42,562 bases of DNA from Patescibacteria group bacterium (GTDB lineage Bacteria; Patescibacteriota; Minisyncoccia; Phycocordibacterales; CSBR16-193): positions 1 through 42,562 of the forward strand of contig JBNJGN010000002.1 in the NCBI GenBank assembly GCA_051747785.1. The letters are read 5' to 3'. Shown here one piece after another: positions 20,918 to 26,764 of this stretch. Position numbers and translations under genes: made by a program. Every line of letters begins with the position of its first letter. Position 1 is the stretch's first letter. Below the pieces are notes generated by a model that was given only the letters and a program-made list of their open reading frames with translations, ran no database searches and was not told the DNA's origin.

Positions 20918-21433
20918 ATGGTTTCAGATGAATTAAAAAATTACGTTGTTGATAATTTAAGAGAGGGATGGGAAAAAGAAGAGCTGGAGAAGTCTTTGCT
21001 TGAGGCGGGGTGGCCGGAAGGTGAGATTGAAAGAGTTTTTGAGGAGGATGATGTAAAAGATCTTATTTCTAAACAGGAGGATTCCTCTTTGGATTTAGAG
21101 GAAGACATAGAGTATGAGGGAAAAGCAGAGAATTCTCAAGATGAGCAATCGACTAGCGATGTTGATGTTGACCCGCCACCACAAAAAACTCCTGAATCTT
21201 TTCTTGGGGAAGAAGTTATAGATCTTCCGGAAATAGAAGACCCGCCAGTACCAGAAAACCTATCCTCAGGTGGTTCTAAATTAAAAGCGGATCTAAACGC
21301 ATATATTAAAAATTCTTTGCAGAAAGGTTTTAGCGAGAGGACTATAAAGGCTGTCGCCAAAGAAGCCGGTTGGTCTGATGGGCAGATAGAGGAGGCGATA
21401 GAAGGTGACTCTAAAGAAAAAGGTAATTTTTAA
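20918..21433 (+). CDS. Hypothetical acidic protein, 171 aa: two copies of a ~40-aa helical module joined by an acidic/Pro-rich linker
   Basis: Module copies at 20927-21040 (ELKNYVVDNLREGWEKEELEKSLLEAGWPEGEIERVF) and 21287-21400 (DLNAYIKNSLQKGFSERTIKAVAKEAGWSDGQIEEAI). No signal peptide or TM. Confidence 0.65.
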   Translation: MVSDELKNYVVDNLREGWEKEELEKSLLEAGWPEGEIERVFEEDDVKDLISKQEDSSLDLEEDIEYEGKAENSQDEQSTSDVDVDPPPQKTPESFLGEEVIDLPEIEDPPVPENLSSGGSKLKADLNAYIKNSLQKGFSERTIKAVAKEAGWSDGQIEEAIEGDSKEKGNF

Positions 21434-21438
21434 TATTA

Positions 21439-22200
21439 ATGAATCGTAAGAAAGCTGGACAGATATTATTGCTATTGCTTTATGTTGTAAGTGCTTGTGT
21501 GCTCGTATTTTGGTTAGAACCAAGGTATATATTCACGGTTATTATCGTACTCGTTCCGCCTGCACTTTTGAATTTCTTTTGGCTTAAAAGGTCTCGTTTG
21601 AAAATACTGTTCTTTTCTTTAATGGCGATGTTATTCTTTGCGCCACCGGTAGAGCTTTGTGCTCGTCTGGCCGATGTCTGGGAAGTTCAAACCGTTTTTC
21701 CGGAGATACTGGGCTTTATACCTATAGAGAATATGATATTCGCTTTTCTTAATTTTTTCTGGGTCCTTACTTTTTATGAATATTTTGTTGATAAAGACAA
21801 AAGTGCCAATATTTCCGCGAAGTTCAAATATTTAATAGGAATGTTCTGTGGAGTCTCTATTTTGGTCTACGGCTTATATGCTTATGATCAACAGTTGGTA
21901 GCTTTGAGTTATTTTCAATTGGCTCTTTTGATACTTTTTATTCCCGCCCTTGCGCTTTTCAGTAAAAACCCCAAATTACTTAAAAAGACCATTTTAACCA
22001 CTTTCTTTTTCGCTGTTGTTTTTTTTGCTTACGAATTAGTGGCTTTGAAGATAGGGAACTGGTGGTGGCCGGGAGAGTATCTTTTTACTTTTACCGTTTG
22101 GGGAGAGATATTTCCTTTAGATGATGTAATAATATGGTATTTCCTTTCAACGCCAGTATTGATAGGAGGATATGAATTTTTTGTTGATGATTGGCAATAA
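21439..22200 (+). CDS. Polytopic membrane protein, lycopene-cyclase-domain-like (fused CrtYc/CrtYd-type)
   Basis: About 7 TM helices. It has two acidic P-x-(E/D)-(N/D) sites (IPIENMIFAF and FPLDDVIIWYF), one per half, as in heterodimeric-type lycopene cyclase domains. It starts 5 nt after the upstream stop. Confidence 0.45.
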   Translation: MNRKKAGQILLLLLYVVSACVLVFWLEPRYIFTVIIVLVPPALLNFFWLKRSRLKILFFSLMAMLFFAPPVELCARLADVWEVQTVFPEILGFIPIENMIFAFLNFFWVLTFYEYFVDKDKSANISAKFKYLIGMFCGVSILVYGLYAYDQQLVALSYFQLALLILFIPALALFSKNPKLLKKTILTTFFFAVVFFAYELVALKIGNWWWPGEYLFTFTVWGEIFPLDDVIIWYFLSTPVLIGGYEFFVDDWQ

Positions 22201-22315: not shown

Positions 22316-25300
22316 ATGGTACCCGAGGAACTTAAAAAATACGTTATAAAAGCCCTAAGAAGGGGTTTTACCAAATATGCCATAAGGGCAGCTGTTTCTA
22401 ATTCCGGCTGGTCTAAGGAACAAGTTGATGAGGTTTTTGCGGATGACGATGTCAGAGAGCTTACTTCTCTAAGAGAGGATATTCCTGAGCCTGAGAAAGA
22501 GGATGACGAAGTAGAGATAGAAGAAGCTCCCAAAAAAGAAAGTGAAGAACCTCGGGGAGATAGTTCTTCTGAAAGGGAGAATTCTTCTAAGGAAGCACAG
22601 TCTAATGAAAGCAAAAGAGAAGTAGATGAAGAACTGAGAAAATACCTGGTAAGTCATCTAAAGGAGGGTTTTAGTGGGTCTGTAATAAAAGATGTTGCTA
22701 TTGAATCAGGTTGGCCGGAGGAGGATCTTGATGAGGCTTTTGAGGATCCTGAGATAAAGTCTCTTCTTTCTGATTCAGAAAATGGTGAAGAAGAAGCGGC
22801 TGAAAATGAAGAGATGCCAGAGGAAGGTAAAAGTGGTTCAGAAGACAGCGAAGGTAGGTTAGAGGGCAAAAGTAAGGACGAAGATAAAAATGAAGAACCA
22901 AATAGTGATAATCAGGAACAGAAAAAGGAAGTAGGAAAAGAAGATAAAAAAGTGAATAAGAGAGGAGTCGCAGTGGATGACCATAAAGGAAACGGAATGA
23001 AGATGATTTATGCAAAGGACGCTGAGAAAGAGAAAGATGAGAACTTAGTGGGTAATGAAAAGAAGAAAGAGAGTAATGAAGACGAGCAAGGGGGTCAAAA
23101 ATATACCAAATCAATACCTACATCAGAAGATGCTTTAGATATATCAGATAAGGAGGGCAAGGATGATGTTGAAAAAAAAGAGAAAAAAATATCTGAACAG
23201 GAACAAAAAGAAAATGCTACCAGTGAAAAGACCCGCCCCTCATCAGAGGACACCTCTTTTGCTGAGAAGGAAGAGACGACAGAGAAGGTAAAAGAAAAGG
23301 ATCAAGAAACCGATAAACCGGAAGCCCCCCTAGAGTCTAAAGAAGTAGAGTCTAAAGAAGAACCTAAGAAAAAGACCCGCCCCTCATCAGAGGCTGAACC
23401 CGTTGAGAAAGAGGGTACATCTCAGCCAAAGAAAGAAGAGCGATCTACTAATCCAGATGAGAAGACTGGTGGTGAATCCGAAGAAAAGACTCACCCTTCT
23501 TCGGAGGCCGAACCCGCAGAGAAAGAGGGTACATCTCAGCCAAAGAGAGAGGAGGGATCTACTGATCCAGATGAGAAGACTGGTGGTGAATCTGCAGATG
23601 AAGACGGGCCTTCTTTAGAAGAGGCTTTATCCTTGGTAGAGAAGAAAAGAGGTGGAGAGAGTAAGAATAGAGATGATAATAATTCTAATAAACCGGAATA
23701 TCCCGATAAACCGGAAGCCCCCTTAGAGTCTAAAGAAGTAGAGTCTGAAGAAGAAACTAAGAAAAAGACCCGCCCTTCATCAGAGGCCGAATCCGCAGAG
23801 AAAGAGGGTACATCTCAGCCAAAGAGAGAGGAGGGATCTACTAATCCAGATGAGAAGACTGGTGGTGAATCCGAAGAAAAGACCCGCCCCTCATCAGAGG
23901 ACACCTCTTTTGCTGAGAAGGAAGAGACGACTGAGAAGGTAAAAGAAAAGGGTCAATATCCCGATAAACCGGAAGCCCCCTTAGAGTCTAAAGAAGTAGA
24001 GTCTGAAGAAGAAACTAAGAAAAAGACCCGCCCTTCATCAGAGGCCGAACCCGCAGAGAAAGAGGGTACATCTCAGCCAAAGAGAGAGGAGGGATCTACT
24101 AATCCAGATGAGAAGACTGGTGGTGAATCCGAAGAAAAGACCCGCCCCTCATCGGAGGCTGGGTCAGTAGAGAAAGAGGGCTCAGTTCAGCAAAAGGGAG
24201 AAGAACATTTTGATGAAAGTTCCAGGAAAAAGGAGGGTTCCAAGGAAGAGTTGGATCTTGAGGGAAGTACAGGTGCAGGACAGATAAATAACGCTGAAGA
24301 GCTTGAAGAAAAGGAAGTGGAAAAAGAAAGTATGTCCGGCGATGGTGAAGAAAAAGAGGAGCGGGAAGAGGAATTTAAAAAAAAAAGAATAAACAGTAAC
24401 GAAGAATTAAAGACAACAATCAATGGTGCCAAAGAAGAGGAAGAGGAAGGTAAAAGCACAAAGAGAGTGGATGCAAAAAGTGAAGACGAGAGCGGTATTT
24501 TTATTGCGGAAGAAAAAGAGGGGCTCCGTGAGAAGGACAGAGATAATATGGAAAAAGCACCGGTTTTTGAAGAGGTGGTGGAAAGATCACCTCAGCAAAA
24601 AACTTCCAAAGAAGTATTTGCTAAAAGAGATAATATGACAAAAATGGGAACATACAATAAGCAGCAATCAGATCAAAGTGCTCGCGGTCCTCGTTCTCAA
24701 GATAAGAGCCGTTTTTCAGGTCAAGAGAGGCCTTCTTCTGAAGGAGGGTTATCTTCTTCAGGTGATTCTTATCTGTCAAAAGAAGAATTAGATAACATTG
24801 TTTCTGTTCAAAAAGGAGAGGATTTTAATATAAAAGAATACAGAAATGATCACAGGAATAGACAGAATTCCTCTGTGGAAGAACAGGCTAGAGGATACCC
24901 CTACGGACCCTATCCTCAGCAACCTATGCCAATGGGCCAACCTATGCAACAGCCCTACGGACCCTATCCGCAACAGCAGATGCCAATGGGTCAACCTATG
25001 CAACAGCCTTACGGACCCTATCCTCAGCAACCTATGCCAATGGGCCAACCTATGCAACAGCCCTACGGACCCTATCCGCAACAGCAGATGCCAATGGGTC
25101 AACCCATGCAACAGCCTCACGGACCCTATCCTCAGCAACCTATGCCAATGGGCCAACCTATGCAACAGCCCTACGGACCCTATCCGCAACAGCAGATGCC
25201 GATGGGCCAACCCATGCAACAGCCCTACGGACCCTATCCGCAACAGCCAATGGGAGGCCAACCCATGCAACAGCCAATGGGAGGCCAGCCTATGCAACAG

Positions 25301-26764
25301 CCTTACGGATCTTATCCGCAACAGCAGCCCTTTGGACAACAACGTAACACCAGGCCTCCACAGGGCTCAGGTTATTCAGTACAGTCTGCTTCCGGGTGGG
25401 GATCGGGGTCATCTTACGGAAATCCCGGTAATGATGTTGGTGCGCCTGATTATTCCGGAACTTCGCAGTTACCGGTTGATCGTAAATCGAAAAGTAATCA
25501 GTTTGAGGAAGATCATAAAGAAACTTCAAGAAAATACGTTGGAGAAGATAAATTAAATCCTTTGCTTAAAGAGTACGTAATAGAGAGTTTTGAAAAAGGT
25601 TTTCGTAAGTCATTAATAAAGGAGGCTATCAGAGATTCCGGTTGGCCTGAGAGCGAAGTTGAGAGAGTTTTTGGTGATAGAAAGGTCAGAGAAAGGATCG
25701 CGGAAATAGTGAGTCGCAGAAATGAAGAAGAGAGAAGCAGTAAACCTAAGAAAAAGACCCGCCCCTCATCAGAGGCCGAACCCGCAGAGAAAGAGGATAC
25801 ATCTCAGCCAAAGAAAGAAGAGCGATCTACTAATCCAGATGAGAAGACTGGTGGTGAATCCGAAGAAAAGACCCGCCCTTCATCAGAGGACACCTCTTTT
25901 GCTGAGAAGGAAGAGACGACTGAGAAGGTAAAAGAAAAGGGGCAATATCCCGATAAACCGGAAGCCCCCCTAGAGTCTAAAGAGGAAAAGAAAGCCATCC
26001 ATAACACAGTCCCCAATCAAGAAAACAAGAAAAAGATCCGCCCCTCATCAGAGGCCGAACCCGCAGAGAAAGAGGATACATCTCAGCCAAAGAAAGAGGA
26101 GGAATCTACTAATCCAGATGAGAAGACTGCTGGTGAATCTGAAGATAAAACTACTTCCTCTTTAGAAAATTCCTCTTTAGCCAAAGGGGGCGTGGCGACT
26201 GAAGAGAAGGGAGAAGAAGATACTGATAATCTTGAGGCCAAAAAAGTTTCTCAGTTCAAAGAGAAAGAAGGGGATTCTTCTTTGGAAAAAGATAAATCAT
26301 CAAGAAATAGAGGAGAGATACCATCGGTCAATGAATTATCTCAAGATGAATCTGCTAAAAAGCTCCAGGAAAAAGAGGGTAGTAAGAACGGAGTGGAGCA
26401 AGGGCCGGAAAAAGCCCCTTCTCCCGAAGGGGGAGAGAAAAAACTTACATATGGATCGGAGAAAGAAGAAAAAGCTTCTCCTACTCCTAAAGAGCCCCCT
26501 TCTCCCGGAGAAGAGCCTGCACCCGCACCTTCTCCTGAAGAGAGCCGGAGCTCTTCTGTTAACGAAGATTTAACCGCTAAAGAAGGTGATAAACTTGATA
26601 GCGATGAACCATCTTCTGCTGGTAGGCGGGTTAAAAGAGATATCTCAAACCCTGCTTCTTTCTTTGTAGAAAATTCAAGTGCTTGGTCTGAAATACAAGG
26701 ACAAGAAGATGGAAATAAAGAGAATAAAGGAGGAAAATCTCAAAACACATCTGAGAGTAATTAA
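22316..26764 (+). CDS. Giant (1,482 aa) acidic, low-complexity repeat protein with three copies of the ~40-aa module, KTRPSSE-type repeats and a P/Q/M/G/Y-rich tract
   Basis: An uninterrupted 4.4-kb frame in AT-rich DNA. Modules at 22322-22438, 22625-22741 and 25553-25678. No signal peptide or TM. E/K/S/P-dominated elsewhere. Confidence 0.8.
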   Translation: MVPEELKKYVIKALRRGFTKYAIRAAVSNSGWSKEQVDEVFADDDVRELTSLREDIPEPEKEDDEVEIEEAPKKESEEPRGDSSSERENSSKEAQSNESKREVDEELRKYLVSHLKEGFSGSVIKDVAIESGWPEEDLDEAFEDPEIKSLLSDSENGEEEAAENEEMPEEGKSGSEDSEGRLEGKSKDEDKNEEPNSDNQEQKKEVGKEDKKVNKRGVAVDDHKGNGMKMIYAKDAEKEKDENLVGNEKKKESNEDEQGGQKYTKSIPTSEDALDISDKEGKDDVEKKEKKISEQEQKENATSEKTRPSSEDTSFAEKEETTEKVKEKDQETDKPEAPLESKEVESKEEPKKKTRPSSEAEPVEKEGTSQPKKEERSTNPDEKTGGESEEKTHPSSEAEPAEKEGTSQPKREEGSTDPDEKTGGESADEDGPSLEEALSLVEKKRGGESKNRDDNNSNKPEYPDKPEAPLESKEVESEEETKKKTRPSSEAESAEKEGTSQPKREEGSTNPDEKTGGESEEKTRPSSEDTSFAEKEETTEKVKEKGQYPDKPEAPLESKEVESEEETKKKTRPSSEAEPAEKEGTSQPKREEGSTNPDEKTGGESEEKTRPSSEAGSVEKEGSVQQKGEEHFDESSRKKEGSKEELDLEGSTGAGQINNAEELEEKEVEKESMSGDGEEKEEREEEFKKKRINSNEELKTTINGAKEEEEEGKSTKRVDAKSEDESGIFIAEEKEGLREKDRDNMEKAPVFEEVVERSPQQKTSKEVFAKRDNMTKMGTYNKQQSDQSARGPRSQDKSRFSGQERPSSEGGLSSSGDSYLSKEELDNIVSVQKGEDFNIKEYRNDHRNRQNSSVEEQARGYPYGPYPQQPMPMGQPMQQPYGPYPQQQMPMGQPMQQPYGPYPQQPMPMGQPMQQPYGPYPQQQMPMGQPMQQPHGPYPQQPMPMGQPMQQPYGPYPQQQMPMGQPMQQPYGPYPQQPMGGQPMQQPMGGQPMQQPYGSYPQQQPFGQQRNTRPPQGSGYSVQSASGWGSGSSYGNPGNDVGAPDYSGTSQLPVDRKSKSNQFEEDHKETSRKYVGEDKLNPLLKEYVIESFEKGFRKSLIKEAIRDSGWPESEVERVFGDRKVRERIAEIVSRRNEEERSSKPKKKTRPSSEAEPAEKEDTSQPKKEERSTNPDEKTGGESEEKTRPSSEDTSFAEKEETTEKVKEKGQYPDKPEAPLESKEEKKAIHNTVPNQENKKKIRPSSEAEPAEKEDTSQPKKEEESTNPDEKTAGESEDKTTSSLENSSLAKGGVATEEKGEEDTDNLEAKKVSQFKEKEGDSSLEKDKSSRNRGEIPSVNELSQDESAKKLQEKEGSKNGVEQGPEKAPSPEGGEKKLTYGSEKEEKASPTPKEPPSPGEEPAPAPSPEESRSSSVNEDLTAKEGDKLDSDEPSSAGRRVKRDISNPASFFVENSSAWSEIQGQEDGNKENKGGKSQNTSESN
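23228..24250 (+). repeat. In-frame coding repeat cluster 1: 144-nt A units and 114-nt B units
   Basis: Each unit starts aagacccgccc (KTRPSSE). A units start at 23228 and 23879, with a partial copy from 23697. B units start at 23372, 23486, 23765, 24023 and 24137 (degenerate). Confidence 0.9.
24899..25327 (+). repeat. Tandem 54-nt (108-nt super-unit) coding array encoding PYGPYPQQ(P/Q)MPMGQPMQQ
   Basis: Units start at 24899, 24953, 25007, 25061, 25115 and 25169, followed by degenerate units to about 25327. Odd and even units form two alternating sequence classes. Confidence 0.9.
25754..26146 (+). repeat. In-frame coding repeat cluster 2 (B-A-B), downstream of module 3
   Basis: B at 25754, truncated A at 25868, B variant (aagatccgcccc) at 26033. 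The sequences are near-identical to cluster 1 units. Confidence 0.85.

Follow-up and report, generated by a model that had tools for sequence, protein, structure and literature searches.

What might an uncharged, tandemly repeated tract rich in Pro, Gln, Tyr and Met be doing in the middle of a strongly acidic bacterial protein? The question is raised by a locus on contig JBNJGN010000002.1 (assembly GCA_051747785.1) of a Patescibacteria group bacterium, and the window analyzed here is a 42,562 nt stretch of that contig (positions 1 to 42,562, forward strand). The source assembly comprises 714,502 bp in 54 contigs, is 94% complete and carries about 700 genes, and its closest named relatives are metagenome-assembled genomes (MAGs) entered as 'Patescibacteria group bacterium'. 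The tract is encoded within a gene (P0001) at 22316..26764 on the plus strand, an open reading frame (ORF) of 1,482 aa with an ortholog in a second species of the same genus. Judged by its sequence, it is a real, conserved tandem repeat and not slippage debris. The reading we favor, although it falls a little short of probable, is that the tract is the cohesive or contact element of the protein, a proline-kinked, tyrosine-studded block making weak multivalent contacts inside a self-repelling polyanionic scaffold.

The repeat array and the tract it encodes

Tandem Repeats Finder (TRF) located the array at 24899-25275, either as 7.0 copies of a 54 nt period (86% matches, score 544) or, alternatively, as 3.5 copies of a 108 nt period (94% matches, score 643). 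Its core is a run of six near-identical 54 nt units that make up three 108 nt A/B super-units (24899..25222, plus strand; TRF, unit listing and pairwise differences). An earlier reading of the letters by a model without database searches (the sequence-only reading) had placed six units at 24899, 24953, 25007, 25061, 25115 and 25169, and these starts proved to be exact; in the frame of the host ORF, each unit translates as PYGPYPQQ(P/Q)MPMGQPMQQ. The two alternating unit classes it described were likewise recovered, with translations alternating between PYGPYPQQPMPMGQPMQQ and PYGPYPQQQMPMGQPMQQ and a Tyr to His change in one unit. Pairwise differences between units amount to 1-3 nt within a class and 6-9 nt between classes. 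The three super-units differ pairwise by 2, 3 and 5 of 108 nt (95-98% identity), and their copy number (3 x 108 nt, near-identical) is as assembled. The array passes into a degenerate end (PYGPYPQQPMGGQPMQQPMGGQPMQQPYGSYPQQQPFGQQ; 25223..25342, plus strand), defined by translation and core listing.

The whole uncharged tract is 149 aa long (aa 861-1009; 24896-25342), close to the 145 aa or so that had been estimated, and contains no Asp, Glu, Lys or Arg. It consists mainly of Gln (31%), Pro (29%), Met (15%), Gly (13%) and Tyr (11%), Asn is absent (0%) and Ser is almost nil, and P+Q amounts to 60% and P+G to 42%. Eight P(Y/H)G(P/S)YP cores are separated by spacers of P/Q/M/G, 10-18 residues in length, and the 17 aromatic residues of the tract show regular Tyr gaps of 3/15. 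Methionine is concentrated here, with 22 residues in the 149 aa of the tract versus 8 in the other 1,333 aa of the protein (0.6%; binomial P = 7e-24), and every repeat unit has one MxM and a third Met. The longest proline-free run is four residues, the same as in the ortholog. A scan of all open frames of at least 100 aa showed the tract to be the only one of its kind in the 714 kb genome; the other charge-poor windows rich in Q/N/P/G/Y/S/M were confined to Ser-rich frames resembling antisense readings of acidic genes.

The host protein is mostly disordered and has a net charge of -119. No signal peptide or transmembrane (TM) helix was predicted for it, and it matched no Pfam or NCBIfam family. 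Outside the tract (1,333 aa), its leading residues are E (20%), K (13%), S (12%) and D (6%). The charge is carried by two arms, -74 in the N-terminal arm (aa 151-740) and -25 in the C-terminal arm (aa 1126-1482), and the center (aa 741-1077) has a net charge of about 0. The protein is a block copolymer, with a neutral center between acidic arms. The flanks of the tract had been called hyper-acidic, which is true of the two arms but not of the 120 aa directly upstream of the tract, which are about neutral and R-rich. TRF reported further repeats throughout the rest of the gene.

Ahead of the tract lies the segment SYLSKEELDNIVSVQKGEDFNIKEYRNDHRNRQN (aa 818-851; 24767..24868, plus strand), which is identical to the ortholog at 33 of 34 positions and in which AlphaFold2 places two weak helices. 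Behind it, where the sequence-only reading had noticed a G/S/Y/N-rich segment, comes one rich in G/S/Y/W (aa 1010-1050; 25343..25465, plus strand), seen also in the alignment with the ortholog, where the ratio of nonsynonymous to synonymous substitution rates (dN/dS) is 0.10. The only long proline-free run of the neutral core (21 aa) sits in this segment. A Gly/Ser/aromatic sequence at 25361-25429, QGSGYSVQSASGWGSGSSYGNPG, is nearly identical in the ortholog. Two additional ORFs are generated by the repeat, one of 184 aa on the opposite strand (24788..25342, minus strand) and one of 236 aa in another frame (24846-25556, plus strand). They had been suspected to be spurious and were rejected as genes; both are by-products of the real frame, since synonymous sites in that frame are saturated between species and the other frames are therefore not conserved.

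Conservation and evolution of the tract

Among GTDB representative genomes, orthologs of the host protein were found only within the same genus. A search of genome contigs returned solely a MAG of the G004 type (JBNJEF010000011.1), a Patescibacteria MAG of the same genus that carries a 1,294 aa ortholog in conserved synteny. The shared gene order is phosphoesterase, small protein with two helical modules, 253 aa membrane protein, the giant protein, a small ORF and a P-type ATPase. Absence of the tract from independent assemblies, or its presence out of frame, had been named as grounds for dismissing it; here it lies in the reading frame of a real gene and is conserved in this second species. 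The G004 tract is 134 aa (149 here) and has seven QQPY(G/R)PYP cores (eight here), and the spacers between cores differ in both length and sequence between the two. The QQPYGPYP core is invariant over 15 units from two species while the spacers drift, which argues for a role at the level of the motif, through multivalent weak contacts, as opposed to an inert spacer or neutral slippage. The G004 tract has 12 Met (22 here), with M to V/T changes and R insertions.

Nei-Gojobori counts were made between this genome (G000) and G004. The proportions of nonsynonymous (pN) and synonymous (pS) differences were 0.134 and 0.82 (saturated) for the tract, 0.10-0.13 and 0.53-0.72 for the three helical modules of the protein, and 0.34-0.38 and 0.61-0.68 for the acidic arms; in this comparison with one ortholog, the pN of the tract is 2.5-3 times below that of the neighboring disordered arms. 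Every segment of the host protein for which dS could be estimated has a dN/dS below 1. The conserved islands of the protein are the tract, SYLSKEELDNIVSVQKGEDFNIKEYRNDHRNRQN, QGSGYS.QSASGWGSGSSY.NPG, module 3 and the C-terminal peptide VKRDISNPASFFVENSSAWSEIQ.

Comparison of the DNA shows units that are 94% identical here but only 69-71% identical in G004, so their near-identity in this genome reflects recent amplification or homogenization. From the sequences, the three 108 nt super-units appear to be a recent amplification or homogenization of an older A/B pair that predates the split of the sister species, and counterparts of the A/B unit pair occupy the central part of the G004 array. In G003, a more distant ortholog, uncharged G/Q/P/Y/F/N tracts stand at the equivalent place beside its modules.

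Disorder and prion tests

AlphaFold2 was run on aa 744-1130 with a G004 row. In the resulting model, the tract has predicted local distance difference test (pLDDT) values of 37-47 and no secondary structure, whereas module 3 scores 82-88. FoldIndex is negative over the tract. It therefore resembles prion domains in having a disordered, low-charge, Q/N-rich stretch of at least about 60 aa (with N at 0%), and it resembles Met-rich prion-like domains in being a Met-biased low-complexity region with at least five Met. It also has the regular aromatic stickers in an uncharged P/G/Q spacer expected of sticker-and-spacer sequences. Proline-poor segments capable of cross-beta structure were not found in it.

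Prion propensity was scored with a re-implementation of PAPA that used the published residue propensities, windows of 41 residues, a FoldIndex filter and a threshold of 0.05. With these parameters, the score reaches at most -0.075 within the tract and -0.064 over the whole protein, and the mean propensity of the tract is -0.14 with proline and +0.29 without it. From composition, a positive PLAAC call would be expected. Scores below threshold had been named in advance as evidence against a prion-like tract, and for PAPA, in this re-implementation, that is the result. The prion-like interpretation consequently survives for composition and predicted disorder, but its amyloid part is not supported. 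Proline is under-represented among prion-forming isolates, while aromatic residues and Met promote prion-type aggregation (PMC6059496), and Met and aromatic residues also promote self-association (PMC6059496, PMC8394241). Chains rich in P+G form hydrated, liquid-like assemblies and are incompatible with amyloid (PMC5703643). Because the tract is charge-free, predicted to be disordered, in frame and conserved, its composition may be described as prion-like or low-complexity, and it could mediate weak self-association.

Proposed role and alternative explanations

We propose that the array encodes a disordered, uncharged block in which eight evenly spaced QQPYGPYP motifs would act as 'stickers' separated by variable spacers. 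The block would sit centrally (aa 741-1077) in a putatively cytoplasmic scaffold with two strongly acidic arms. The spaced tyrosines, aided by the methionines, could bind weakly but at many points, either to further copies of the tract or to a partner, possibly the small three-helix modules of the same locus, which are candidates by proximity only. Since about 30% proline would hold the chain extended and hydrated, these contacts would be liquid- or gel-like, in the manner of elastin, gluten or phenylalanine-glycine (FG) repeats, and not amyloid. The acidic arms would form a solubilizing brush.

Several observations weigh against this proposal. With its net charge of -119, the full-length protein would resist homotypic condensation, and freedom from charge is not strictly conserved, as the G004 tract carries seven R and one E. 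The low pN of the tract is an estimate from one ortholog in a repetitive, low-complexity alignment, where the choice of register inflates identity. Neither the G001 and G005 types (P0009 and P0008) nor the visible part of G002 contain the tract, which is therefore not essential to the protein family. Lastly, a comparison of the module fold with the PDB gave nothing significant, the best match being the Pex14 N-terminal domain (TM-score 0.64, E >1).

The main rival is that the tract is a passive, flexible tether, P/Q-rich, extended and non-interacting like the P/Q domain of E. coli ZipA, and does no more than hold the upstream arm and module 3 a given distance apart. Its P+Q content and disorder suit such a role. 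So does its position, with a charged region before it and a small globular module after it; the domains of ZipA follow one another in the order charged, P/Q, globular (PMC6904479). Genus relatives of the host protein are membrane-anchored, and in P0029, an unrelated bacterial protein, similar Q/P/Y/M repeats connect a zinc ribbon with a membrane domain. The host protein itself, however, lacks a TM anchor, and it already contains some 1,000 aa of disordered spacer, so that a special uncharged spacer would not be needed for length. The invariance of the core is a constraint on a motif and not on length or composition, and the pN of the tract is as low as that of the folded modules. On balance, we consider a pure tether unlikely. 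A functionally neutral expansion, in which slippage has inflated a tolerated repeat whose composition has no role, would account for the very recent amplification (super-units 95-98% identical), for a unit length that is a multiple of 3 and so makes changes in copy number harmless, for the lack of the tract in several genus relatives, and for the repeat-rich nature of the remainder of the gene. Against it, a tract of similar length (134 vs 149 aa) and motif has been retained in a species whose synonymous sites are saturated in comparison with this one, and nonsynonymous change in the tract is well below that in the disordered arms (2.5-3 times), making neutrality quite unlikely in our view.

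The two remaining alternatives take the composition more literally. The methionines themselves may be the functional residues, with MPM/MxxxM clusters binding Cu(I) or another soft metal, or with a reversible Met-oxidation switch as in yeast Pbp1 and its Met-rich low-complexity domain. This would fit the steep local enrichment in Met, the MxM and third Met of each unit, and the presence of a cation P-type ATPase gene two genes downstream, and Met-rich prion-like domains are a recognized class (PMC9312190, PMC8394241). However, Met is the least conserved feature of the tract, whereas the Tyr cores are invariant. The neighboring ATPase has Cation_ATPase_N and Cation_ATPase_C domains, which are usual in P2-type pumps but not in the P1B pumps that export Cu. 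A search for MsrA and MsrB (PF01625, PF01641) found neither in the 94%-complete genome, although control genomes were positive, and with Met so poorly conserved a Met-redox switch was rejected as the leading interpretation; a Met-based function of either kind is very improbable. A bona fide prion-forming domain, amyloid and self-propagating, would be in keeping with a charge-free, Q-rich, Y/M-rich and disordered tract of more than 60 aa. The adjoining GSGYS...SGWGSGSSYGN segment, with its 21 aa proline-free run and its aromatic/Gly/Ser motifs, might even allow labile cross-beta contacts. Set against this are the proline content of the tract, its proline-free runs of at most four residues, the lack of Asn, the PAPA-type maximum below threshold, a P+G content within the amyloid-incompatible regime (PMC5703643), and the depletion of proline among prion isolates (PMC6059496). 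The tract is unlikely to be a true prion, and we find the self-propagating amyloid version scarcely credible.

The preferred reading, a cohesive contact block, can be extended into a bolder one, in which the host protein is an analogue of bimodal FG-nucleoporin-like or elastin-like proteins. The Tyr-Pro block would then form a liquid or gel phase or a micelle-like hub, the polyanionic arms would disperse it, and the five three-helix modules of the locus together with repeated short motifs (10 x KTRPSSE and the C-terminal NPASFF) would recruit clients. Such a eukaryote-style condensate scaffold in an ultra-small cell might replace the membrane anchor of the sister species; we regard this extension as improbable. 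Even the simpler proposal, if true, would describe a compact natural sticker-and-spacer design in a bacterium with about 700 genes, made of eight Tyr-Pro cores, tunable spacers and built-in polyanionic solubilizers. The host protein also belongs to a genus-restricted, uncharacterized family whose building block, a small helical module, has a scattered distribution among the Patescibacteria.

Helical modules and other features of the locus

The host protein contains three copies of a helical module of about 38 aa, with a G[FW]...GW signature and the fold of a three-helix bundle. Copy 1 (aa 4-41; 22325..22438) was recognized by alignment and by an AlphaFold2 model with a pLDDT of 86, copy 2 (aa 105-142; 22628..22741) by alignment and genome search, and copy 3 (aa 1080-1119; 25553..25672), which lies 70 aa downstream of the tract, by alignment and a pLDDT of 82-88. 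All are on the plus strand, and the genome search recovered each of them. Two more copies in the upstream 171 aa protein bring the total at the locus to five. The module has no Pfam family, and among PDB sequences its profile picked up nothing beyond designed helical miniproteins or TetR-like noise. Its profile matches 41 of 301 sampled Patescibacteria genomes. Elsewhere in the phylum, the module is mostly the N-terminal head of membrane proteins, placed before the first TM helix, and some of these proteins have pseudopilin-like ectodomains. Its placement ahead of the first TM helix suggests a cytoplasmic location for the module.

Near the end of the protein is a C-terminal peptide, VKRDISNPASFFVENSSAWSEIQ (aa 1439-1461; 26630..26698, plus strand), which is identical in G004 (dN/dS 0.08) and takes the form (V/S)KR(D/N/S)I(S/L)NP(A/S/T)SFFIE(N/D) throughout the genus. 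In two relatives, G001 and G005, the chain continues beyond the NPxSFF motif into a TM helix and a Cys-containing ectodomain, neither of which was found in G000, G002, G003 or G004. Smaller multi-module proteins of G001 and G005 carry related NPFF(D/S)IF motifs.

Ten K(T/I)(R/H)PSSE motifs are spread between 23228 and 26146 (aa 305-1246), within coding repeats of 114/144 nt, and appear as KTRPSSH, KTRPSSED and KTRPSPED in genus relatives. At the DNA level, the motif (GCCCCTCATCAGAGGC) is a small inverted repeat, and a terminator scan flagged the minus strand at every copy. In several assemblies of the same genus, the orthologous genes lie at contig ends or contain runs of N (G001:C22, G005:C31, G002:C9), which suggests that the repeat-rich genes of this family often break short-read assemblies.

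Upstream of the host gene, the 171 aa protein with two module copies (20918..21433, plus strand) and a 253 aa multi-TM protein (21439-22200), which lies between the two module proteins, are both syntenic in G004. Against Pfam Lycopene_cyc, the 253 aa protein scored only E = 0.31 and 12 bits, below the cut-off of 27. VanY, NlpC/P60, HlyD and ABC transporter genes are also present in the window.

Comparison with known proteins and systems

Searches beyond the genus gave no orthologous tract. The host protein had no exact match in the protein collection, and word-based homolog searches with its full length and with aa 1010-1130 returned no matches; the same kind of search with the 171 aa neighbor matched only its G004 ortholog. 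In JGI metagenome contigs, the conserved alignment of the GSY segment and module found no confirmed relatives, and a degenerate DNA pattern for MQQPYGPYP had 0 matches. A phmmer search with aa 818-1130 against 1.84 billion protein representatives found no orthologous tract, and its matches to the tract were compositional only (P0029, P0039, P0015). Among them are QQQPYGQ in the tail of a eukaryotic claudin-like protein, QQPFGQ repeats in a WW-domain protein and GYPQQQMQQ repeats in a zinc-ribbon membrane protein of bacterial origin. These look-alikes share the Q/P/Y bias, in some cases with M and G as well, and many are tandem and disordered, but they are non-homologous, lie in other kinds of host protein and lack the QQPYGPYP core. 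The tract is one more of the common Q/P/Y-rich bacterial low-complexity regions.

The closest bacterial parallel considered is the P/Q domain of E. coli ZipA, a flexible tether (PMC6904479, citing Ohashi et al. 2002), which is likewise about 100-150 aa long, P/Q-rich, predicted to be unstructured and placed between a charged and a small globular region; it is cytoplasmic, as the tract probably is too. The host protein indeed has a P/Q-rich, unstructured stretch of roughly 100 aa or more flanked by a charged region and a globular domain, but it has no membrane anchor and no ZipA FtsZ-binding domain (no TM helix, no Pfam family), and it is about 4.5 times longer than ZipA. The two domains are not homologous, and the tract stands apart by its exact tandem repetition, its eight invariant Tyr-Pro cores and its Met content (15%).

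Among eukaryotic systems, the FUS/hnRNPA1 and Met-rich prion-like domains share with the tract an uncharged Q/G/Y composition, evenly spaced aromatic residues and Met enrichment, which is extreme here (PMC9312190, PMC8394241). They differ from it in that the tract has about 30% proline, no Asn, almost no Ser and a PAPA-type score below threshold, and in that its host is a bacterium with a 0.7 Mb genome in which no Msr enzymes were found. Elastin-like and cereal prolamin repeats resemble it in their P+G content (42% here), short tandem units, P-Xn-G spacing and disorder, and hydrated, liquid-like assembly, not amyloid, would be expected (PMC5703643). Those repeats, however, are eukaryotic and extracellular or storage proteins, while the tract is probably intracellular, 149 aa long and embedded in a polyanion, and the resemblance is one of composition only.

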